Part shown: in pieces, positions 6,570-47,208 of the stretch
Position numbering within the stretch: the first letter of the stretch is position 1
Layout: the number at the start of each line of letters is the position of its first letter
Assembly: GCA_038727135.1 (NCBI GenBank)
Contig: JAVYWL010000002.1
Span: 7,186-71,185 of the forward strand
Reading direction: 5' to 3'
DNA length: 64,000 bases
DNA from: Candidatus Bathyarchaeia archaeon
Lineage (GTDB): Archaea; Thermoproteota; Bathyarchaeia; Bathyarchaeales; Bathycorpusculaceae
The notes under the pieces: generated by a model
Databases searched by the model: none
Told to the model about the DNA's origin: nothing
What the model saw: only the letters and a program-made list of their open reading frames with translations
Position numbers and translations under genes: made by a program

Positions 6570-7130
6570 TTACTCGTAGAATATTAATTCCTTCTCCTCC
6601 AACATCTCATGAAGCTTGTGGACGGCATCATAAACGTCTTGCTCTCTTTTGGCTCCTGTGCAGACAAGCTTGCCACTTGCAAAAAGCAGTATAACAACTT
6701 TAGGATTATCCATTCTATAGATTAGCCCTGGAAACTGCTCAGGCTCATACATGGTTTTTCCAAGAGTGTAGGCTGCCTTCTCCAGGTCTATCATACCGCC
6801 AAGACTCGCAGAAGCCACAATGTTCTGAATTTTCAATTCAGGCTTGCTTATGATTATTATCCCGCCCCGCTTCAGCTCTTTAATAACCTTCATGACAGCC
6901 CTACGCGCTTCCTTTTCAGATTTGGCGCCAGTACAGACCATCTTACCAGAATTGAAGATTAAAGTAGCTGTTTTAGGCCTTTTAAGCCTAAAAACAAGCC
7001 CTGGAAACTGTTCAGGACGGTATTCGACTCCAGGATATCCCTTAACAACAGCGTTCAAGTCCACCTTCTGGTTCAGGGTTGCCGAAGCTACAACATTTTC
7101 TATGCTTATCATGGCTTTAACTTTAGGCAT
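6570..7130 (-). CDS. tbp: TATA-box binding protein
   Basis: Two direct repeats (IENVVASA...PEQFPGLVFRL... / IQNIVASA...PEQFPGLIYRM...) are diagnostic of TBP. I placed the start at MPKVKAM; the ORF extends to 7154. Confidence 0.9.
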   Translation of the reverse strand: MPKVKAMISIENVVASATLNQKVDLNAVVKGYPGVEYRPEQFPGLVFRLKRPKTATLIFNSGKMVCTGAKSEKEARRAVMKVIKELKRGGIIIISKPELKIQNIVASASLGGMIDLEKAAYTLGKTMYEPEQFPGLIYRMDNPKVVILLFASGKLVCTGAKREQDVYDAVHKLHEMLEEKELIFYE

Positions 7131-7274
7131 GGAAACACCACTTCTACATATCAAGTCTTTAAATATCCTTTATAAAGCATTAGGTTTAAAAACTCTGTTA
7201 AAATTTGAGCATTAATTTGGGAAAAACTTAAATCAGTCAACCGTAACCTTACGACTCTATAAAAGGGTGAAGAA

Positions 7275-8225
7275 TTGGGGAAAACATTAAAGTCGGGATA
7301 CACATTTCTTCCACCCGCAGTTTTTGCATCGTTTCTTTTAGCTTTCTACTTGACCTTCAAAATTCTCCCGGGACCAGAATTCATTTTTCTATGCCTGTTT
7401 GTGTACGCTTCTTACACCAAAAGCGACAACCGCTTTATAAGAGCTTTCACGCCATTCATTCTATCCTTTTTATCTTATGAGGCGTTGAATAGGCTCATAA
7501 GCAGCATCCCAAGATACATCTTCGTCAAGGAGCCAATAGCCGCTGACTCGTGGATTTTTAACACCGTCCCAACCATCGTGCTTCAAAAGTCCATTAGAAT
7601 GCCGATTTTAGATTACATCGGAGCCGCCGTCTACTCTCTGCATTTCATAGCGCCAACAATATTCGCCTTCATATTGTGGAAGTATAAGCCAAAACAATAC
7701 CGAGAATATGTTCTGGCCTTTATGATATGTACTTACAGCGCCCTTATAACTTTCCTTGTTTTTCCGGTGGCACCTCCATGGTATGGAGTTGGGGCCACAA
7801 GAATACTTTTCCAAGTTGACGATAACTTAGGTGTTCCCATGTACAGGGCACTCTATGACTATATTGGAATAAACCCATTTGCGGCATTTCCAAGCCTTCA
7901 TTCGGCGATTCCGTGGTTGATAGCCCTCTTCGCCCTTAAAGCGTGGAAGAAAAAAGCTCTGCCAATCATAATTTTCCCGATGATGGTCTGGTTTAGCGCT
8001 GTTTACCTCGGAGAACATTACGTGATTGATGTGGTAGGTGGAATTGTTTATGCAACTTTAGCCTCTATCGCAGTATACAACAAGGATAGGATTACTAAGA
8101 TCAGATTCACCTTCGGCAGAAATATTGCCGACTCGGTACTGAATAGTTTAGGGAAGATTCAGCTTCCAATATATCGAAGAAGTGAGCAAATGTATGTATC
8201 CATGATTCGGCGCACCTTGTGGTAG
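7275..8225 (+). CDS. PAP2-superfamily integral membrane protein
   Basis: Multi-TM protein with PSLHSA ... GEHYVIDVVGG, matching phosphatase motifs C2/C3 of the PAP2 family. TTG start. Confidence 0.6.
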   Translation: MGKTLKSGYTFLPPAVFASFLLAFYLTFKILPGPEFIFLCLFVYASYTKSDNRFIRAFTPFILSFLSYEALNRLISSIPRYIFVKEPIAADSWIFNTVPTIVLQKSIRMPILDYIGAAVYSLHFIAPTIFAFILWKYKPKQYREYVLAFMICTYSALITFLVFPVAPPWYGVGATRILFQVDDNLGVPMYRALYDYIGINPFAAFPSLHSAIPWLIALFALKAWKKKALPIIIFPMMVWFSAVYLGEHYVIDVVGGIVYATLASIAVYNKDRITKIRFTFGRNIADSVLNSLGKIQLPIYRRSEQMYVSMIRRTLW

Positions 8226-10337: not shown

Positions 10338-10590
10338 TCTTCTCTTTAGAGTCGAAAGTTTCCAATTTTGTGGCTTACAATTTTCGGGTTTTCGTTGCAG
10401 TTAAGGTTTGTGGAAGATAATTCTGGAAGAATCTTCTATTTTATCATAATCACCAAAATTTTTGTTTACTAGTCCATGTTTTTGCGTTAATTTCGTATAT
10501 GGTTTTCTTCCGTGTCAAGCTGAAAACTGTTAAATTTGACACTCCTCTATAATTTTGGAGAAAAATAATAAAAGGCTGAGGATTTAGTTT

Positions 10591-11547
10591 TTGCCGCCTA
10601 GAAGGGTTTGGTGTAAAATTGCGTTTTTAACAGTTTGCTATTCGCTATTCCTTTTTGGTAGTGTTCAAGCAGTTTTATGTGAAAACCAGCCCTTGGTAAG
10701 GGTTTACTTCTTCGATGTGGGGCAAGGAGACGCCATATTTATAGAAACGGGTGGGCATGACGTGCTTATTGATGGTGGACCCCGTAGCGCCGGTTCAATG
10801 CTCATGGGCTATTTGTCTGATTTAGGTGTTTCGGAAATAGCCTACGTGGTTGCTACGCACCCCCATGAAGACCATATAGGAGGGCTCATATCGGTTTTAG
10901 AGTCAAGCATTTCCGTTGGTGTAGTCCTATATAATGGCGAAAGCGTCACTTCACAAGTGTACCAAAATTTTATGAGCCTTGCCCAAGGCAGAATCACCAT
11001 TGTCTATAGAGGACAAACATATGTTCTAAATGAAAATGTTAATTTCACAATTCTGAATCCTGTGCAGCCCCTTGAATTCGCAGAGGTAAACAGCAACAGC
11101 ATAGTCCTACGGCTCCAGGTGGGAGACGTGGCTTTTCTTTTCACTGGTGATGCCACTTTCGAGGTTGAGGAAAGCATGATGGATGCTGGCTTAAACCTTT
11201 CAAGTCAGGTTTTGAAGGTCGCCCATCACGGAAGCAGATACGCAACTTCAGAAGCCTTTTTAGACGTTGTTAATCCATCATACGCCGTAATCAGCGCTGG
11301 AATAGGTAACCCTTATGGGCACCCACACAACGAGACCGTTCAAAGGCTCCTAAGCAAGGGAGTAACGGTCTATGGAACATATGTTTCCGGAACAATAGTC
11401 ATGGGCACCGACGGACAAAAAGTGTACGTTTATGGAAACCCAACGCCGATTCCAGAATTCTCACAGCATATAGTTTTATGCTACCTTTTGATTCTATTCG
11501 CTTTAGTTATGTTATGGCAAAGCGCTATACAAGTTAAGCTAGGCTAG
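10591..11547 (+). CDS. Secreted ComEC/Rec2-type metallo-beta-lactamase domain protein with C-terminal PEF + TM tail
   Basis: Signal/TM N-terminus; FFDVGQGDAIFIE, ATHPHEDHIGG and VAHHGS are typical of the ComEC C-terminal MBL domain. The C-terminus is PIPEFSQHIVLCYLLILFALVMLW. TTG start. Confidence 0.7.
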   Translation: MPPRRVWCKIAFLTVCYSLFLFGSVQAVLCENQPLVRVYFFDVGQGDAIFIETGGHDVLIDGGPRSAGSMLMGYLSDLGVSEIAYVVATHPHEDHIGGLISVLESSISVGVVLYNGESVTSQVYQNFMSLAQGRITIVYRGQTYVLNENVNFTILNPVQPLEFAEVNSNSIVLRLQVGDVAFLFTGDATFEVEESMMDAGLNLSSQVLKVAHHGSRYATSEAFLDVVNPSYAVISAGIGNPYGHPHNETVQRLLSKGVTVYGTYVSGTIVMGTDGQKVYVYGNPTPIPEFSQHIVLCYLLILFALVMLWQSAIQVKLG

Positions 11548-32030: not shown

Positions 32031-32681
32031 ATGAAAGAAGAAGTCCTAAATAAACTGATGAACGCGGTCCTAAGCTATGACCCGGAAGCCGCTGTTAAAG
32101 CTGCGGAAGAAGCCCTCCAAAAAGGCGTAGACCCCGTTGAGGCCATTGAAGAAGGTCTAGCCAAAGGGGTAAGAATTGTCGGAGAGCGGTTCGGCGCCGG
32201 AGAAGCCTTTTTAACAGAGCTTGTAATAGCCGCGGAAGCCATGAAACAAGCCCTAAAAGTTCTCGAACCTGCAATTCTAAAAAGCGCTAGAGAAAAGAAA
32301 ACTCTAGGCAGGGTTCTTATAGGCACGGTGGAAGGAGATATCCACGACATTGGAAAGAACATTGTAAGTACGCTTCTCATGGTGGCCGGCTTTGAGGTTA
32401 TAGACATAGGAGTTGACGTTCCAACCGAAAAGTTCGTAGAGAAAGTTAAAGAGGTTAAACCAGACATAGTTGGAATGTCCGCCCTAATGACCACCACTAT
32501 GGCCAAAATGGCAGAGGTTATAGAAGCCCTAAAACGTGAAGGACTACGCGAAAAAGTTAAAGTGATAATAGGCGGGGCTCCCACATCCAAGAAGTGGGCC
32601 GAAGAAATAGGCGCCGACGGCCACGGCGGAGACGCCATAGAAGCTGTTGAAGTGGCAAAAAAGCTGGTGAAAGCCGCATAA
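32031..32681 (+). CDS. Corrinoid (cobalamin-binding) methyl-carrier protein 1
   Basis: B12-binding cap helix bundle plus a Rossmann domain with GDIHDIGKN (DxHxxG), SALMTTT and GGAP. Start at the ATG after AAGGTGG. Confidence 0.85.
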   Translation: MKEEVLNKLMNAVLSYDPEAAVKAAEEALQKGVDPVEAIEEGLAKGVRIVGERFGAGEAFLTELVIAAEAMKQALKVLEPAILKSAREKKTLGRVLIGTVEGDIHDIGKNIVSTLLMVAGFEVIDIGVDVPTEKFVEKVKEVKPDIVGMSALMTTTMAKMAEVIEALKREGLREKVKVIIGGAPTSKKWAEEIGADGHGGDAIEAVEVAKKLVKAA

Positions 32682-32725: not shown

Positions 32726-34183
32726 ATGGTTTTTCCCAGAGAAAATCAGAGGGTAAAATTCTCCGTCCTTTCCAGAGAAGATTTAGAAACGATTCACAAA
32801 GCCACCTTAGAAGTTTTAGAGACAACAGGGCTTAGAATCACTAGCCAAAAGTGCCTCAGGATTCTTGAGGAAGGAGGCTGCAAGGTTGATTATAAAAGGC
32901 AGGTGGCATTTATCCCCTCTTATTTGGTTGAAGAAGCCTTGAGGAAAAAACAGAAGAGCATAACTCTCTGTGCCAGAAATCCAAAATATGATGCAGTTTT
33001 GGATGAAAATCATGTGTATATAACCACTGACGGGAATGGAACCCAAACTTACGACATGGAAACTGGGGAAAGGCGGACTTCAACAAAGGATGATATAGCC
33101 AAATCAGCCATAATTTCAGACGCCATTGACGTGGTGGACATATATTGGCCCATGGTAAGTGCCCAAGACTATCCAGCCCACGTTCGACATCTCCACGATC
33201 TTGAGGTTTCTTTAGCTAACACGGAAAAACATGTAACCTTCGAAACAACCATGTCGCCTAAAGAAGCTAGATATCAGATAGAAATTGCAGCGGCAGTTCT
33301 CGGAGACGAAGAGAAGCTAAGGAAGAGGCCCATAATCTCTTCCCTACACTGCACAAGCGCCCCACTTCAAATGGATGGAAACAGCATGGAAGCCGCCCTA
33401 GAATTTTCTAAAGCTGGCATTCCAGTGATGTTTTTTGGAATGCCCCAGCCGGGAGCCACGGGTCCTGTAACGCTTGCCGGTTCTTTGGTTGTGAATAATG
33501 CTGAAGTTTTGGGCTGTCTCACTCTAACTCAATTGGTTTGTCCAGGGGCTCCTGTCATTTATGGCGCTGGCATAGCGGTTTTTGATATGAAAACCTTAAA
33601 ACGAGCTGGGGGAGGCCCGGAACACGGTTTAACCGGCGCCGCTGCCGGTGAGCTAGCAAGGTATTATGGTATGCCCTCTATTGTGGGAGGTTTTGTTTCA
33701 ACGGCAAAGACTCCGGGAGCCCAAGCATGTTATGAAAAGTTTGCAAGCGGGTTTCCACCAGTTTTCTCCGGGTGCAGCATGATCGCCGGGGTAGGATTGC
33801 TTGATGACTGCACAACCCTCGCCTTTGAAGAGATTCTAATAGACGCTGAAATTGTGAAGATAGTTTTCCGAATAGCCCAGGGAATAGAGGTTAACGACAA
33901 CACATTAGCACTTGATATTATCCGCAAAGTTGGTCCAGGCGGCAATTTCCTAGCCGAGAGACACACCCTTCAAAACTTGCGAAGGGAACATTTCATCCCC
34001 GAATTAACCGACAGGCGATCCTTCGAAGCGTGGATCAAGGATGGCGGGAAAGACCTGGTGAGGATAGCCAAGGAAAAGGTTAAGGTAATCCTTCAAACAC
34101 ACCAAGTTCAACCCTTAGAAAAGGATGTGCAAAAGGAAATCAAACGCATCATTGAAAGGGCTGAAAAGGATTTAGCTACCTAA
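32726..34183 (+). CDS. MttB-superfamily methyltransferase, non-pyrrolysine (paralog 1)
   Basis: 485 aa, uninterrupted. LSREDLETIHKATLEVLETTGLRI...FIPSYLVEEAL, GPGGNFLAERHT. Confidence 0.85.
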   Translation: MVFPRENQRVKFSVLSREDLETIHKATLEVLETTGLRITSQKCLRILEEGGCKVDYKRQVAFIPSYLVEEALRKKQKSITLCARNPKYDAVLDENHVYITTDGNGTQTYDMETGERRTSTKDDIAKSAIISDAIDVVDIYWPMVSAQDYPAHVRHLHDLEVSLANTEKHVTFETTMSPKEARYQIEIAAAVLGDEEKLRKRPIISSLHCTSAPLQMDGNSMEAALEFSKAGIPVMFFGMPQPGATGPVTLAGSLVVNNAEVLGCLTLTQLVCPGAPVIYGAGIAVFDMKTLKRAGGGPEHGLTGAAAGELARYYGMPSIVGGFVSTAKTPGAQACYEKFASGFPPVFSGCSMIAGVGLLDDCTTLAFEEILIDAEIVKIVFRIAQGIEVNDNTLALDIIRKVGPGGNFLAERHTLQNLRREHFIPELTDRRSFEAWIKDGGKDLVRIAKEKVKVILQTHQVQPLEKDVQKEIKRIIERAEKDLAT

Positions 34184-34233
34184 AAAGCTTATTAAAAACT
34201 TTGTTTGTTAAACGTTTCAAAAGGAGGAAAATT

Positions 34234-35676
34234 ATGCCTAAATCCTCTCTTCCAAAATTTCAGCCTTTGTCCGAGGATGAAATCGAGTCAATTCACCTTG
34301 CTTCTCTTAGACTCCTAGAAGAGGTTGGCGTGAAAATATACAGCGAAAACGCATTAAAATTATTAAGCGGCAACGGAGCTGAGGTGGACTTTGATAAGAA
34401 AATTGCCTATATCCCACAACATTTGGTTAAGGAAGCTCTCAGTAAGGCGCCTTCCACCATCAAACTTTATGGTAGAATTAGGAGACACGACAGAGTTTTA
34501 GAAGGAGACACAGTCACATTTAATCCTGGATCATCAGCCCTATACATTCTGGATTATGAGACTGGTGAAATTAGGAGACCAATTTCGAAGGATTTGGAGA
34601 ATCTTGTTAGACTTGCCGACGCTCTTGAACATATTCAGGCGCAAAGCACAGCCATGGTTGTTTCGGATGTCCCTCAGTCAATAGTGGACCGTTACCGCCT
34701 CTACATAGTTCTAAAAAATTCTTCAAAGCCAATAATAACCGGAGCCTTCAGCATCGATGGACTTTATGACATGAAAAGAATGCTTGAAATTGTGGCTGGC
34801 GGCGAGAAAGAATTAGCCAAAAAGCCCATGGCAATATTTGATGTTTGTCCCTCTTCACCGTTAAAATGGAGCGAAATCGACGTACAAAACCTAGTAGATT
34901 GCGCCAAATTCCGTTTACCTGTTAATATTATTCCAGCAATCCAGTTAGGTGCCACTGGTCCCGCAACGATAGCTGGCTCCCTTGTTCAACACAACGCCGA
35001 AGTTTTAAGCGGCTTGGTGATGGTTCAGCTAGTAAATCCGGGTTCCCCGGTGATTTATGGCGGTTCACCAACGGTTTTCGATCAGAGGTGTGCTACGGCT
35101 TGTCTAGGGGCTGTGGAAGCTATGCTTCTGGGTTGTGCCTACATCCAAATTGCAAAGAGCTATCGATTGCCAACTCACATGTATATTGGACTTAGTGATG
35201 CGAAGGTGATAGATGCACAATGCGGCTTTGAAACTGGAATAGGCTTAGTATTAGGAGCGTTGGCTGGAATAAACGTGATATCCGGACCGGGAATGTTAAA
35301 CTTTGAAAATTGCCAAAGTTTAGAAAAACTTGTTATAGACAACGAAATTTGCGGCATGGCACTTAGGCTAGCAAAGGGTGTTAAGGTTGAAGATGAAACA
35401 ATAGCCTTCGACCTTATTAAAAAGGTGGGGCCCGGCGGAACATACTTGGCAGAAAGGCACACTCTGGAATGGATTAGAAAAGAGCAGTTCGTACCATCAG
35501 AAATCATTGATCGCAAAGAATGGAAGGCTTGGAGAGATGCTGGGAAAAAAGACGTAGTGAAACGAGCTCACGAAATTGTCGAGAAAAAACTGAAAGAGCA
35601 TGTGCCTGAGCCGTTACCCAAAGATGTCCAAGAAAACCTTGACAATTTTGCAAAAGACCTATTGAAAAGATGCTGA
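34234..35676 (+). CDS. MttB-superfamily methyltransferase, non-pyrrolysine (paralog 2)
   Basis: LSEDEIESIHLASLRLLEEVGVKI, GPGGTYLAERHT. Start at the ATG after AAGGAGGA. Confidence 0.85.
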   Translation: MPKSSLPKFQPLSEDEIESIHLASLRLLEEVGVKIYSENALKLLSGNGAEVDFDKKIAYIPQHLVKEALSKAPSTIKLYGRIRRHDRVLEGDTVTFNPGSSALYILDYETGEIRRPISKDLENLVRLADALEHIQAQSTAMVVSDVPQSIVDRYRLYIVLKNSSKPIITGAFSIDGLYDMKRMLEIVAGGEKELAKKPMAIFDVCPSSPLKWSEIDVQNLVDCAKFRLPVNIIPAIQLGATGPATIAGSLVQHNAEVLSGLVMVQLVNPGSPVIYGGSPTVFDQRCATACLGAVEAMLLGCAYIQIAKSYRLPTHMYIGLSDAKVIDAQCGFETGIGLVLGALAGINVISGPGMLNFENCQSLEKLVIDNEICGMALRLAKGVKVEDETIAFDLIKKVGPGGTYLAERHTLEWIRKEQFVPSEIIDRKEWKAWRDAGKKDVVKRAHEIVEKKLKEHVPEPLPKDVQENLDNFAKDLLKRC

Positions 35677-35757
35677 AAGAATGGCATACCGCCCTAACTT
35701 TTTATGAAAATTTAAATAGATTCCCAACGGTAAGACAGATTCCAAGGAGGATTCAAG

Positions 35758-36663
35758 ATGTTCAAGTTTGAAAAGGAGCAGAAAATTTTTGACATTGCAA
35801 ACGTGAAGGTTGGAGGGCAACCAGGTCAACTTCCAACGGTGCTCATTGGAAGCATATTTTACCATAAGCACAAGATCGTAAAGGACGAGCGGAAAGGCGA
35901 GTTCGACAAGGAGAAAGCCGAAGAAGCACTGAAAAAGGAGGAGGAAATATCCAATAGAACTGGAAATCCGAGAATTGTGGATGTTTGCTGTTCATGGCCA
36001 GAAGCCTTTGAAAAATTCATAGAGTTTGTCGCAGACCATATTGATGGACCCTTTACGATTGATGGCGCCACAGCCGATGTTAGGATTGCCGGGGCAAAAT
36101 ATGTTGGGGAAGTAGGCTTATCCGAAAGGGTTGTTTACAATTCCATAACACCCCATGTTAAAGAGGAAGAAATCACAGCCATTAGAGACGCCAAGATTAA
36201 ATCTGCCGTACTTTTAACACTTAACACCAAAAACCCCACAATTTCGGGAAGGTTGCAGGTGCTCGACGAGTTATTAGCCACGGCTCAAAAGGCGGGAATA
36301 GAAAAGTTTTTGGTGGATACTACGGTTCTCGACCTGCCCGATCCGGGACCAGTTAGCAAGGCCATCTACCTAGTTAAGGAAAAATATGGGTTGCCCGCTG
36401 GGGCTGGAACACATAACGCTGTTGACAGATGGAAAAGTAGGCGCAAGCTTGATGCAACAGAGTATATGCTTGCAACCAGTGTAGCCAACGTTTTCCCCAT
36501 AATTGCCGGAGCCAACTTCATACTGTATGGACCCATTGAAAACGCTTCCCAAGCATACTTTTACTGTGGCTTAGCTGACGCTTATGTCGCTTACGCTGTT
36601 TCCCAAGAGTTTGGGGTAAGACCGTTAACAAGAGATCATCCATTATACAAAATATTCAGGTAA
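35758..36663 (+). CDS. mtrH: MtrH-like methyltransferase (methyl-corrinoid:tetrahydromethanopterin/folate methyltransferase)
   Basis: MFKFEKEQKIFDIANVKVGGQPGQLPTVLIGSIFY closely matches the MtrH N-terminus as I remember it. 301 aa. No other mtr genes nearby. Confidence 0.8.
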   Translation: MFKFEKEQKIFDIANVKVGGQPGQLPTVLIGSIFYHKHKIVKDERKGEFDKEKAEEALKKEEEISNRTGNPRIVDVCCSWPEAFEKFIEFVADHIDGPFTIDGATADVRIAGAKYVGEVGLSERVVYNSITPHVKEEEITAIRDAKIKSAVLLTLNTKNPTISGRLQVLDELLATAQKAGIEKFLVDTTVLDLPDPGPVSKAIYLVKEKYGLPAGAGTHNAVDRWKSRRKLDATEYMLATSVANVFPIIAGANFILYGPIENASQAYFYCGLADAYVAYAVSQEFGVRPLTRDHPLYKIFR

Positions 36664-37955: not shown

Positions 37956-38612
37956 TTATTTCGAATATCCTAGAAGCCTTTTAACAACTTCGACTGCCTC
38001 TGTGGCGTCTGCTCCATAGCCGTCGGCGCCTATTTCTTCAGCCCATTCTCTGCTGGCTGGAGCCCCGCCTATGATTACTTTAACCTTGTCTCTTAGGCCT
38101 TCCCTCTTTAAAGCCTCAATGACTGTTCTTTGCTCTGGCAGGGTTGTGGTTAAGAGGGCTGACAGTCCAACGACGTCTGGCTTTAACTCTTTAATCTTCT
38201 CTACAAATTTTTCAGCTGGCACGTCCTCTCCAATGTCGTAAACTTCAAACCCGTTTGCTGTTAGCATAGAACCAACTATGGTTTTTCCTATGCTGTGGAT
38301 GTCTCCTGCAACAGTGCCTAAAAGCACTTTGCCAAGAGCCTTGCGCTCCTTCTTCGCCCGTCTTAGCTCTGGCTCCAAAACTTCTAAAGCTTTTTTCATA
38401 GTTTCTGCAGCCATTACCAGTTCTGGGAGAAACGCTTCTCCGTTGGCAAATTTTTCTCCAACCTCTCTTATTCCCCTAGCTAAGCCTTCCTCTATAGCCT
38501 TAAGAAGGTCAACCCCAAGCTTTACTGCCTCTTTAGCAGCGGAAACCGCCTCGTCAGCATTGTAGTTCAAAACTGAAAGCCTTAACCTTTCAATAATGTT
38601 TTCTGCGCTCAT
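37956..38612 (-). CDS. Corrinoid (cobalamin-binding) methyl-carrier protein 2
   Basis: GDIHSIGKT (DxHxxG), SALLTTT, GGAP. Roughly 60% identical by eye to carrier 1. Confidence 0.85.
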   Translation of the reverse strand: MSAENIIERLRLSVLNYNADEAVSAAKEAVKLGVDLLKAIEEGLARGIREVGEKFANGEAFLPELVMAAETMKKALEVLEPELRRAKKERKALGKVLLGTVAGDIHSIGKTIVGSMLTANGFEVYDIGEDVPAEKFVEKIKELKPDVVGLSALLTTTLPEQRTVIEALKREGLRDKVKVIIGGAPASREWAEEIGADGYGADATEAVEVVKRLLGYSK

Positions 38613-38613
38613 T

Positions 38614-40035
38614 TTAAGCTCCTCCCCTTCTCTTAATAATGCTTATAATTTTAGCTTTTACATCCTTTGAGAGCGGAAGAACTTGATGCTCTTTTAATAT
38701 TTTCTCGGCTTCTTCCTTAGCTTTAACCCATAAATCCCTAGCCCCCGATTTGACCCAAATGTCTGGAAAAGTCCTATCAGTTATTTTCGGTATCCAAATC
38801 TCCCTTCTGAAGTGTTCAAGGGTGTGGCGCTCTTTTATGAAGCTGCCTTTGGGTCCAACATTCTTGATAACGTCAAATGCTAGGGTTTCATCTGTGATTT
38901 CGAAGCCGCCTACAAGTTTCTTTATCATACTGACAATCTCATTGTCTATGATGAGCCCTTCCAGGCTCATGGTGTTTTCTGAGGCGATTAAACCCATTCC
39001 GCATATTAGGTTAAGACCAGCAAGGGCTGGAAGTACACCTGTTAAAGCCTTTTCATATCCCATCTGAGCGTCCAGAGATTTGGAGTCTGTTAAAACACCG
39101 CCGCCAGCGCTTGGAATACCGTAATAATGCGCCATGTTGGCAACGCATGAGTGTAGCAGGGCAAATTCTGGTCCTCCAAGCACGGCTGAAGCTTGTCTCA
39201 CATCCATGGCCCTTGCCCAACTCCCAATGACGAGCGGAGCGTTCTTGTTAACCACATAACGAATCACTAAGGCACTTATGAACTCAGCCATGTTTAGGGC
39301 TAGAGTTCCAGCCAAAGTCACTGGACTTGTCGCCCCAGCCATGGGACCAGAGTTCACAAAAACCGGGATGCCAAGTTTGCAAGCTTCAACAAAAGCTTCA
39401 AGGGTAGCCCTATCATAAGTAAGTGGACTCGTTATAGATATCAGCAAAAGCATTATCGGTTTTTTCCTCAACTCCTCAACTCCGCCAACAATAGTTGAAG
39501 CCATTTCAATGGCGTCTTGGGCGCCTTCCTTCCGCATAGCCTCATTAATTATTGGTTTACTTGTGTTTTCGAAGGCTGTTGCCCACATGTACCTATCCAC
39601 AATCTCATGGGGCACATCCATTGGAGAGCCCATACACATGTAAAACTCAACATTATCTAAGGCGTCGGCAATTCTCGTTGCATTCGCCAAGTCTTGAACT
39701 GTAACCCTCCTATAAGTTCTTGACGCGGCATCATAGAAGTTAGTTGCAAAACCCACGGTGCCGAAACGGGTTTCATCCCCGCCCAGAGTCCTCCTCGTTT
39801 TCAAGTCTCTATGGTAAACGCTAAATCTATGGGGTGTCTTCTGCAGAGCGTCCTCAGCAAGATAATGTGGAATAAACGCTCGCTGACTTTTATGATCAAC
39901 CTCAGCGCCCGCCTCCTCAAGCTTTTGAAGAACTTCTTCATAGGGAATTATAACGCCGACCTCTTGAAGGATATCCAAACTTGTCAGATGCACAGCGTAC
40001 CTTTGTCTCTTGGAAAGTAAATTAGGGTAGTACAT
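38614..40035 (-). CDS. MttB-superfamily methyltransferase, non-pyrrolysine (paralog 3)
   Basis: 473 aa, uninterrupted. FIPHYLAEDAL, GPKGSFIKERHT. 1-nt spacing to corrinoid gene 2. Confidence 0.85.
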   Translation of the reverse strand: MYYPNLLSKRQRYAVHLTSLDILQEVGVIIPYEEVLQKLEEAGAEVDHKSQRAFIPHYLAEDALQKTPHRFSVYHRDLKTRRTLGGDETRFGTVGFATNFYDAASRTYRRVTVQDLANATRIADALDNVEFYMCMGSPMDVPHEIVDRYMWATAFENTSKPIINEAMRKEGAQDAIEMASTIVGGVEELRKKPIMLLLISITSPLTYDRATLEAFVEACKLGIPVFVNSGPMAGATSPVTLAGTLALNMAEFISALVIRYVVNKNAPLVIGSWARAMDVRQASAVLGGPEFALLHSCVANMAHYYGIPSAGGGVLTDSKSLDAQMGYEKALTGVLPALAGLNLICGMGLIASENTMSLEGLIIDNEIVSMIKKLVGGFEITDETLAFDVIKNVGPKGSFIKERHTLEHFRREIWIPKITDRTFPDIWVKSGARDLWVKAKEEAEKILKEHQVLPLSKDVKAKIISIIKRRGGA

Positions 40036-45750: not shown

Positions 45751-47208
45751 ATGATTGGTTTCTCCAGAGATGATCAAAAAATAAAAATCAGAATTTTTTC
45801 TCGATCTGAGTTGGAAGCTATTCATTGGGCTACGCTGGATATTCTTGAGAGAACTGGTGTTAAGATATACAGTGAAAAATGTCTAAAAATCCTCGAGGAG
45901 GCTGGTTGTAAGGTAGATTACAAAATGGGGTGTGCATTAATTCCCTCCGAGGTCGTTGAAGAGGCTTTAAGAAAGAAAAAAAGTGTATTTAGGTTGTGTG
46001 CCAGAAACCCGAAATATGACTTGAAGCTAGATGGCAGACATGTGTACATAACCACGGATGGCAACGCGGTAAACACTCTGGATTTTGAGACTGGGGAAAG
46101 AAGGGCTTCAACAAAAGATGACATTGCTAAGTCAGCCACCATCGCAGACGCGCTTGACTCTGTTGGCGTTTATTGGCCAATGGTCACCTCCTCAGATGTG
46201 CCTGCGCCCATTCGACATTTGCACGACTTAGAAGCATCTTTAGCCAATACTGAAAAGCACGTTCAACTTGAAACAATAGTCAAACCAAAAGTAGCCCGTT
46301 ATGCAGTTGAAATTGCAGCGGCTGTGGTTGGAGACACAAAAAAGCTCAGGGAACGCCCAATAATATCCTCTCTGCATTGCACCATATCGCCCCTCCAACA
46401 TGAAGGGGGATCCATTGAAGCAGCATTAGAATTTGCCAAGGCAGGTATACCCGTATCCTTTTATGGAATGCCACAAGCAGGTGCCACCAGCCCAGTAACG
46501 CTTGCAGGAGCAGTCGTTATTAATAACGCCGAAGTTTTAAGTGGCCTTGTAATAGTGCAACTTGTGCATCCAGGAGCACCAGTGATATATGGCACTGGCG
46601 GCGCTGGTTTTGACATGAAAGCGGGCACTTGGACAGGGGGATCACCAGAACGGGCGCTAATTTCGGCAGCCGCGGGGGAGCTGGCTAAATACTATAATAT
46701 GCCATCTCTTGTGGGAGGTTTTGTTACATCCGCCAAAACTATCGACGCACAAGCATGTTATGAAAAGCTCATCAGCGGCATCCCCCAAGTTCTTTCCGGA
46801 TGCGACATAATTGCTGGAATAGGCCTCATCGACAACTGCAATACCCTTTCGTTTGAGCAGCTTCTGATAGATGATGAAATCGTTAACATGACTTTTCGCC
46901 TTGTTGAAGGCATAGAAGTGAAAGAACAGACAATAGCACTCGACCTGATTCAAAAAATTGGTCCCGGGGGCAATTTCTTGGCTGAGAAGCATACACTTGA
47001 ATATTTGCAGAAAGAACACTTCATTCCAAAATTAACTGATAGACGCTCTTATGAGGCCTGGCTTAAAAATGGCGCAAAGGACATCACAAAGAGGGCAAAA
47101 GAAAAAGTTAAAACAATCCTCCAACAACATCAACCACAACCCCTGCCAAAAGAAACTCGAACGGAAATACAAAATATCATTGGACGTGCAGAAAAAGATA
47201 TGATTTAA
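45751..47208 (+). CDS. MttB-superfamily methyltransferase, non-pyrrolysine (paralog 4)
   Basis: 485 aa, colinear with paralog 1 and about two-thirds identical by eye. GPGGNFLAEKHT. Confidence 0.85.
   Translation: MIGFSRDDQKIKIRIFSRSELEAIHWATLDILERTGVKIYSEKCLKILEEAGCKVDYKMGCALIPSEVVEEALRKKKSVFRLCARNPKYDLKLDGRHVYITTDGNAVNTLDFETGERRASTKDDIAKSATIADALDSVGVYWPMVTSSDVPAPIRHLHDLEASLANTEKHVQLETIVKPKVARYAVEIAAAVVGDTKKLRERPIISSLHCTISPLQHEGGSIEAALEFAKAGIPVSFYGMPQAGATSPVTLAGAVVINNAEVLSGLVIVQLVHPGAPVIYGTGGAGFDMKAGTWTGGSPERALISAAAGELAKYYNMPSLVGGFVTSAKTIDAQACYEKLISGIPQVLSGCDIIAGIGLIDNCNTLSFEQLLIDDEIVNMTFRLVEGIEVKEQTIALDLIQKIGPGGNFLAEKHTLEYLQKEHFIPKLTDRRSYEAWLKNGAKDITKRAKEKVKTILQQHQPQPLPKETRTEIQNIIGRAEKDMI

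Follow-up and report, generated by a model that had tools for sequence, protein, structure and literature searches.

A Soluble, Complex-Independent MtrH-Family Methyltransferase Predicted in a Corrinoid Methyltransferase Island of a Bathyarchaeial Genome, and the ramA Relic in Front of Its Gene

Introduction

The MtrH family was divided by Kurth et al. 2021 into the MtrH of the Mtr complex (subgroup I) and non-complex MtrH-related proteins, the latter including an enzyme from Desulfitobacterium hafniense and MtoA (PMC8630106). The window analyzed here is the whole stretch of 64,000 nucleotides from a hot-spring Candidatus Bathyarchaeia archaeon, and it carries an mtrH-like gene on the forward strand at positions 35758..36663. 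This locus raises the question of whether the encoded protein is the displaced subunit of a membrane complex or a soluble enzyme that serves the corrinoid proteins encoded around it. The analysis presented below indicates that the gene is real and that, as judged from sequence and genomic context, it most likely encodes a soluble, complex-independent enzyme of the MtrH/MtgA type that would transfer methyl groups from B12 carrier proteins to tetrahydromethanopterin (H4MPT).

Results and Discussion

Identity and Family of the MtrH-like Protein

Inspection of the sequence places the ATG of the mtrH-like open reading frame at 35758 and the TAA stop codon at 36661-36663. The product of 301 amino acids is predicted to be a non-complex methylcorrinoid:pterin methyltransferase (MT2) of the MtrH/MtgA/MtoA type. 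The original prediction had described an MtrH-like reading frame 81 nt past MttB paralog 2, with no other mtr subunit nearby; the coordinates proved to be exact and no further mtr subunit is present at the locus. The protein aligns with the Pfam family MtrH (PF02007) over the full length of the profile (positions 1-297 of 299) with an E value of 1.1e-90 and a score of 304 bits against a gathering cut-off of 22.8.

The NCBIfam models separate the window protein from the MtrH proteins whose genes are linked to an mtr operon. The top model for the window protein is NF002142, the "MtrH family protein" subfamily, on which it reaches 316 bits (cut-off 287). The operon-linked proteins score 210-270 bits with NF002142, which is under this cut-off, and their highest-scoring model is the mtrH equivalog TIGR01114 with 380-546 bits. 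The window protein exceeds the cut-off of TIGR01114 by a narrow margin (285 versus 271 bits). Its closest named homologs, and the loci at 79-99% identity, come from hot-spring Bathyarchaeia MAGs, including members of the Bathycorpusculaceae.

Genes of the Island and Their Conservation

Three genes of a corrinoid methyltransferase system precede mtrH on the same strand. Corrinoid protein 1 (32031..32681, forward strand) contains the B12-binding_2 and B12-binding domains and has a TIGR02370 score of 231 against a cut-off of 215; its reading frame is open from 31899 and the domains begin at residue 50. MttB paralog 1 follows at 32726..34183 (forward strand, PF06253, E 2.6e-99) and MttB paralog 2 at 34201..35676 (forward strand, PF06253, E 5e-102). 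MttB paralog 2 is a member of the non-Pyl MttB superfamily, and its nearest solved structures are 2QNE, a methyltransferase from D. hafniense, and 9YCE, which is a glycine betaine methyltransferase. Translation of this paralog probably starts at the ATG at 34234, and its TGA stop codon is found at 35674-35676.

The opposite strand carries genes for a class I/II aminotransferase, corrinoid protein 2 (37956..38612, reverse strand, TIGR02370 score of 228 against the cut-off of 215) and MttB paralog 3 (38614..40035, reverse strand, PF06253, E 2e-92). Further genes of the island encode an ABC importer, a 2-hydroxyacid dehydrogenase, a binding protein, a PLP enzyme, and an arginase-family enzyme (with MttB paralog 4 at 45751..47208, forward strand, PF06253, E 4e-107). 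Four MttB paralogs and two corrinoid proteins are encoded within 11 kb. The order corrinoid protein-MttB-MttB-(RamA)-MtrH on one side and aminotransferase-corrinoid protein-MttB on the other is kept in six relatives (loci L011-L015 and L019).

Proposed Reaction Sequence and Its Direction

The reading that is regarded with good confidence as the likely one is that of a soluble MtrH-family MT2 in a corrinoid-dependent demethylation system, through which methyl groups would pass from a methylated corrinoid to H4MPT and on to acetyl-CoA. An MttB paralog (MT1) would act on a methylated amine, with quaternary amines and N-methyl amino acids as the probable substrates, and move its methyl group onto the Co(I) center of one of the two island corrinoid proteins. 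The MtrH-like enzyme would then use methyl-Co(III) to methylate a pterin, most likely H4MPT, at N5, and the carbon monoxide dehydrogenase/acetyl-CoA synthase (CODH/ACS) would combine methyl-H4MPT with CO and CoA to form acetyl-CoA. Oxidized corrinoid would be re-reduced by an activase of the RamA/RACo type, whose gene lies at another place on the contig. We infer the direction of transfer, the acceptor, the substrates, and the consumption of the methyl group by ACS from the genomic context.

MtrH works in the opposite way in the Mtr complex, from methyl-H4MPT to Co(I) (PMC7886697), and an anabolic role in this native direction was weighed for the window enzyme. Methyl-H4MPT released by CODH/ACS through cleavage of acetyl-CoA would then load a corrinoid protein for biosynthesis, for example of methionine. 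This option was raised by Loh et al. for the pairs of corrinoid protein and MtrH in Bathy-6 (PMC7886697), and the failure to find Mer and MetF would leave acetyl-CoA cleavage as the only other source of methyl-H4MPT. The surroundings of the gene make such a role improbable. A methionine-synthase-like gene is absent from the island, and mtrH stands instead among four MttB methyltransferases, two corrinoid proteins, transporters, and genes of amino acid catabolism. The layout is that of catabolic MT1-corrinoid protein-MT2 systems such as MtgABC and MtoABCD, and ramA is coupled directly to mtrH in the relatives.

The Pterin Acceptor and the C1 Pathway

The host genome contains two copies of Ftr and, also from the H4MPT branch, Mch, together with a complete archaeal CODH/ACS operon (CdhA, CdhB, CdhC, CdhD, CdhE, and a CooC-like ATPase). 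Searches of the genome, which is 94.7% complete, found none of MetF, FTHFS, and FolD. In the congener G031, mtrH is located 234 nt from an ftr gene. The pterin that accepts the methyl group is therefore most probably H4MPT. Beta-RFAP synthase, a committed marker of H4MPT biosynthesis, is represented by a weak match of 23 bits, below the cut-off of 113.

The alternative in which the mechanism is the same and tetrahydrofolate is the acceptor, as it is for MtgA of D. hafniense, is considered very unlikely. The window enzyme is 44% identical to the tetrahydrofolate-dependent MtgA, and parts of both the tetrahydrofolate and the H4MPT branches occur in related archaea (PMC9723716). This identity does not carry the window enzyme into the MtgA equivalog (NF047990), for which it reaches 281 of the 550 bits required. 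His219 is found in the window enzyme and in all of the H4MPT-using MtrH proteins of the complex, whereas MtgA has a serine at this position. The set of pterin enzymes described above (two Ftr, Mch, and an archaeal-type CODH/ACS, with MetF, FTHFS, and FolD not found) and the proximity of mtrH to ftr in the congener also argue against tetrahydrofolate.

Mtd and Mer, or any luciferase-like protein, were likewise not found in the 94.7% complete genome. The C1 pathway detected in this seven-contig MAG is incomplete, since none of Mer, Mtd, and MetF was found. CODH/ACS is the only recognized consumer of methyl-H4MPT in the genome. If the absences of Mer, MetF, Mtd, FolD, and FTHFS are real, the synthesis of acetyl-CoA by CODH/ACS would, on a speculative reading, depend strictly on methyl groups from methylated amines.

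Independence from the Mtr Complex

The host genome is a MAG of 1.55 Mb in seven contigs, with the window on contig 2, and it contains one copy of mtrH. A genome check for mtrA-G and an MtrH phylogeny had been proposed together with the original prediction. The genome search covered MtrA, MtrD, MtrE, and McrA and gave no match for any of the four proteins in this 94.7% complete genome. Among 31 genomes of the host's family, MtrA is found in none and mtrH in 15, always as a single match. Methanogen loci retrieved with the same query have mtrE-D-C-B-A upstream of mtrH, as confirmed with Pfam.

The tree was constructed from 57-58 MtrH-family proteins, comprising the window protein, 53 proteins from the retrieved loci, and three PDB chains. 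The operon-linked MtrH proteins (15-16 sequences) form one clade, and the window protein falls outside of it. It is placed in another clade, which comprises 24 orphans, has an SH-aLRT support of 98%, and includes sequences from Bathyarchaeia, Archaeoglobi, Baldrarchaeum, Culexmicrobium, and Thermoprotei. Constraining the group of the window protein into the complex clade lowers the log-likelihood by 101 units (AU test, p 6e-16), for a group that was defined post hoc with the tree already seen.

The residues of the pterin site are retained. The M. mazei residues D103, N129, D196, and N230 (PMC12774963) correspond in the alignment to D102, N128, D187, and N220 of the window protein, and H219 and S32 are likewise kept. 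Glutamine occupies position 75 in 16 of 16 complex MtrH proteins, and 40 of 42 orphans, among them the window protein and MtgA, have an aspartate there. The insertions specific to the complex proteins, at M. mazei residues 173-174 and 241-245 (the latter with the K242/K243 patch), are missing from all 42 orphans. The best matches among solved structures are 8Z9U chain B (E 4e-77, 46% identity) and D. hafniense MtgA (E 2e-72, 44% identity), with the complex MtrH of M. mazei (9QTP) behind them at E 1.5e-55 and 35% identity.

The possibility that the gene encodes the displaced MtrH of a membrane-bound Mtr complex specified elsewhere is refuted as far as the data allow and retains a negligible probability. 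The MtrH label given by both Pfam and TIGR01114 and the 5% of the genome that is missing speak for it. Against it, MtrA, MtrD, MtrE, and McrA were not found in the genome, nor MtrA in 31 genomes of the family, the tree and the AU test place the protein outside of the complex clade, and Gln75 and the complex-specific insertions are missing. The original proposal of a complex-independent MtrH that works with the soluble corrinoid proteins of the island is supported by all of the genomic tests, namely the failure to find the complex, the orphan clade, and the conserved synteny.

The Spacer and the ramA Relic

The spacer between MttB paralog 2 and mtrH (35677..35757, forward strand) is exactly 81 nt in length. 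It contains tttttatgaaaatttaaatag at 35699-35719. Within this stretch, the TATA-box-like candidate promoter motif TTTAAATA (35711..35718, forward strand) is preceded by GAAAA. The Shine-Dalgarno-like sequence AAGGAGGA (35743..35750, forward strand) is located further along the spacer, 7 nt ahead of the ATG.

In L012-L014 and L019, a gene with a product of 630 amino acids separates mttB2 from mtrH, and its end is 2 nt ahead of the mtrH ATG. The encoded protein is a corrinoid reductive activase (RACo/RamA) with Fer2, RACo_linker, Raco_middle, and RACo_C_ter domains, and ramA is found immediately 5' of mtrH in 10 of the retrieved loci. Positions 35704-35757 of the spacer align at 78-83% identity with the 54 nt that immediately precede mtrH in L012 and L013, where these nucleotides code for RamA. 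In the same alignment, the 27 nt at the 5' end of the spacer show an identity of approximately 30%, which is the random level; their similarity to the intergenic region between mttB2 and ramA in the relatives is weak and ambiguous. Given the match of 54 nt to the 3' end of ramA and the random level of the 5' part, the spacer is read as the scar of a ramA deletion. By this comparison of sequences, the 5' 27 nt show no similarity to ramA, and the last 54 nt are identified as the 3' end of a deleted ramA, in a scar common to this locus, L015, and L011.

The two motifs have counterparts in the coding sequence of the relatives. There, TTTAAATA(G/A)A is read as the codons TTA-AAT-A(G/A)A, which specify Leu-Asn-Arg/Lys of the conserved RamA C-terminus H-x-x-L-N-R/K-F-P-S. 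The ribosome-binding site of mtrH, AAGGAG, sits inside the 3' end of ramA in the relatives and is homologous to AAGGAGGA. The promoter-like region of its own that had been ascribed to mtrH is thus confirmed with respect to both motifs, which are present in the spacer, and is reinterpreted with respect to the region itself, which corresponds to the 3' end of the deleted ramA. An origin of the spacer by de novo insertion of a promoter was rejected, and the evidence favors the relic.

The only RamA of the host genome is encoded at C2:96029-97981, 53 kb downstream on the same contig and outside of the window. Its identity to the RamA of the L012 island is 56%, whereas the other island genes are 83-93% identical to those of L012. 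The gene at C2:96029-97981 is therefore a separate copy, and translocation of the island ramA to that position was rejected.

A Possible Internal Promoter

The motif in the spacer agrees well with the archaeal BRE/TATA consensus, and the distance of approximately 40 nt from TTTAAATA to the ATG suits an archaeal promoter with a short leader. Six copies of TTTAAATA are present in the window versus 6.2 expected, so the count by itself is not above chance. Five of the six copies are located between open reading frames, in keeping with the role of a TATA box. The sequence (T/C)TTAAATA occurs at the same spot in 9 of the 10 ramA genes that are followed by mtrH, and it is missing in the three motif-bearing ramA genes that mtrH does not follow, including the RamA gene of the host genome. 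These sequences are few and closely related, and the pattern is therefore only a hint of a putative internal mtrH promoter within the 3' end of ramA.

A more far-reaching proposal combines two statements. If the absences of Mer, MetF, Mtd, FolD, and FTHFS are real, the orphan MtrH would be the sole route to methyl-H4MPT, making acetogenesis an obligately methyl-dependent "half-pathway", and at the same time the ramA relic would have been kept for its TATA-like codons, as a pre-existing internal promoter of mtrH. Taken together, the two statements are speculative and rather unlikely to hold jointly.

Relation to Published Work and Significance

Loh et al. 2021 (PMC7886697) cite Evans 2015 and Vanwonterghem 2016 for isolated mtrH genes beside corrinoid-protein genes in Bathyarchaeia and for the idea that these supply methyl groups to H4MPT. 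The 2022 description of the Culexarchaeia reports that mtrH shares its locus with mttB, corrinoid-protein, and activase genes, and proposes the demethylation of quaternary amines into the tetrahydrofolate or H4MPT branch (PMC9723716). The same role of the gene has been proposed for this arrangement in PMC7886697, PMC8630106, and PMC9723716. The arrangement of mtrH, mttB, corrinoid-protein, and ramA genes in non-methanogenic archaea is thus already published; the gene and its reading are sound but not new. The ramA relic is the one new detail of this locus.

Orphan mtrH genes next to corrinoid methyltransferase genes underlie the methane-free methylotrophy proposed for Bathyarchaeia, Culexarchaeia, Asgard archaea, and Archaeoglobi, which are abundant and mostly uncultured. 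The locus is a clean and well-assembled case, with one mtrH, an Mtr complex that was not found, four MttB paralogs, two corrinoid proteins, and a full CODH/ACS, and it could be used to reconstitute the archaeal methyl-corrinoid:H4MPT step in a heterologous host. The ramA relic provides a small and instructive case of operon remodeling, and it warns against calling AT-rich spacers promoter-like when relatives have not been checked.

Comparison with Known Systems

The gene clusters of Culexarchaeia, Bathy-6, and Asgard archaea contain the same set of mtrH, mttB, and corrinoid-protein genes and have given rise to the same hypothesis, in which the demethylation of quaternary amines feeds the Wood-Ljungdahl pathway. 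The MtrH of Culexmicrobium (L023) is 75% identical to the window enzyme and belongs to the same clade. These clusters carry an activase gene, whereas the cluster in the window has the 54-nt relic in place of ramA. The hosts also differ, in that Mer, MetF, and Mtd were not found in the window host.

The complex MtrH proteins of M. mazei (9QTP/9QTS) and M. marburgensis (8Q3V) are TIM-barrel pterin methyltransferases of the same family with conserved pterin-binding residues. They have MtrA-G partners, of which MtrA, MtrD, and MtrE gave no match in the window host, and they lie in a separate clade, with Gln75 and the insertions that include K242/K243 in place of the Asp75 of the window enzyme, which has none of these insertions. 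Their physiological direction is probably opposite to that of the window enzyme. Chain B of PDB entry 8Z9U, annotated as "Tetrahydromethanopterin S-methyltransferase subunit H" with 344 amino acids, is closer, with its 46% identity extending over 273 residues, and it groups on the tree with an orphan MtrH from Bathyarchaeia. Its C-terminal region does not align with the window enzyme.

MtoA of Methermicoccus shengliensis was proposed to be the methyl-Co(III)-MtoC:H4MPT methyltransferase of a methoxydotrophy cluster (PMC8630106). By its description, it resembles the window enzyme as an archaeal, non-complex MT2 of the MtrH family that is encoded together with an MT1, a corrinoid protein, and an activase (PMC8630106). 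The MT1 partners of MtoA are O-demethylases (MtoB), whereas those in the window are of the MttB family. The host of MtoA is a methanogen with Mtr and Mcr, neither of which was found in the window host.

MtgA of D. hafniense (6SJ8/6SJN/6SK4) carries out the methylcorrinoid:tetrahydrofolate methyl transfer in the glycine betaine system MtgABC. It falls into a different orphan clade on the tree. The host of the window enzyme is an archaeon with H4MPT-type enzymes in which folate enzymes were not detected; the acceptor of the window enzyme is thus probably H4MPT, unlike that of MtgA. MtgA is likewise a soluble MT2 encoded with a non-Pyl MT1 of the MttB family and a corrinoid protein, and it shares Asp75 and the Asp/Asn/Asp/Asn set of the pterin site. 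The original prediction had drawn an analogy between the window enzyme and the methylcorrinoid:tetrahydrofolate step of the bacterial betaine systems. The likeness stands, and the relation goes beyond analogy: MtgA belongs to the same Pfam family and shares 44% identity with it across 298 aligned residues (E 2e-72), and the MT2 of the bacterial betaine system is therefore a homolog of the window enzyme.

Remnant of ramA Upstream of mtrH

The 81-nt spacer between MttB paralog 2 and the orphan mtrH-like gene (35758–36663, forward strand) spans positions 35677–35757 of the window. The 3′-terminal 54 nt (35704–35757) are 78–83% identical to the 3′ end of ramA, the gene for the RACo/RamA corrinoid reductive activase directly upstream of mtrH in relatives (positions 7947–8000 in both L012 and L013, mtrH-bearing loci of other genomes). 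The segment is a remnant of a deleted ramA. The same deletion is common to the window, L011, and L015.

The motif (T/C)TTAAATA appears at Leu-Asn-Arg/Lys codons, approximately 50 nt upstream of mtrH, in nine of ten ramA genes with mtrH directly 3′ (L012–L014, L016–L020, and L022). It is absent from the ramA genes of the fetched set that lack an adjacent mtrH, a comparison of few sequences that are closely related to each other. For this small sample of close kin, the motif inside ramA may serve as an internal promoter for mtrH. Within the window, five of the six copies of the octamer TTTAAATA are located between ORFs (7158, 13880, 35711, 40048, and 58296), consistent with a local TATA-box consensus; the sixth is intragenic (43973). 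The total shows no excess over chance expectation.

C1 Pathway and Pterin Acceptor

Two copies of Ftr, together with Mch, are present in the whole genome to which the window belongs (1.55 Mb, 94.7% complete), and a complete cdhABCDE operon is found at C3:168797–175835. No Mer, luciferase-like protein of any kind, MetF, Mtd, FolD, or FTHFS was found in the whole genome. The methyl branch of the Wood–Ljungdahl pathway looks broken between methenyl- and methyl-H4MPT. Another genome from this genus has ftr (formylmethanofuran:H4MPT formyltransferase) 234 nt from mtrH on the same strand (G031:C16:18393–19900); this gene context hints at H4MPT as the acceptor.

Gene Content of the Island

The interval between mtrH and the aminotransferase gene holds additional genes in L012 (8916–12817), L013, L014, and L019, which encode an aldehyde:ferredoxin oxidoreductase, a proline-racemase-family enzyme, and an ornithine cyclodeaminase/mu-crystallin enzyme. 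These genes are absent from the window. The mtrH island is modular and may be tied to proline-derived betaines.

MttB1 (32726–34183) and MttB4 (45751–47208) score 537 and 554, respectively, against the NCBIfam "trimeth_pyl" equivalog and pass the cut-off of 525, even though neither contains an in-frame TAG. Automatic annotation would label both as trimethylamine methyltransferases.

MtrH-Family Genes in Other Lineages

In Candidatus Baldrarchaeum yapensis (L026), a single ramA is flanked by two MtrH paralogs (7029–7955 and 10553–11509) that belong to different orphan clades, with genes for a corrinoid protein and a URO-D-family methyltransferase upstream. A very divergent MtrH-family gene occurs in the bacterial Nitrospirota (L060 and L067; Thermodesulfovibrionales, Dissulfurispiraceae), where it clusters with ramA and with genes for URO-D-family methyltransferase, corrinoid protein, and ferredoxin; in the tree, it is placed basally on a long branch.
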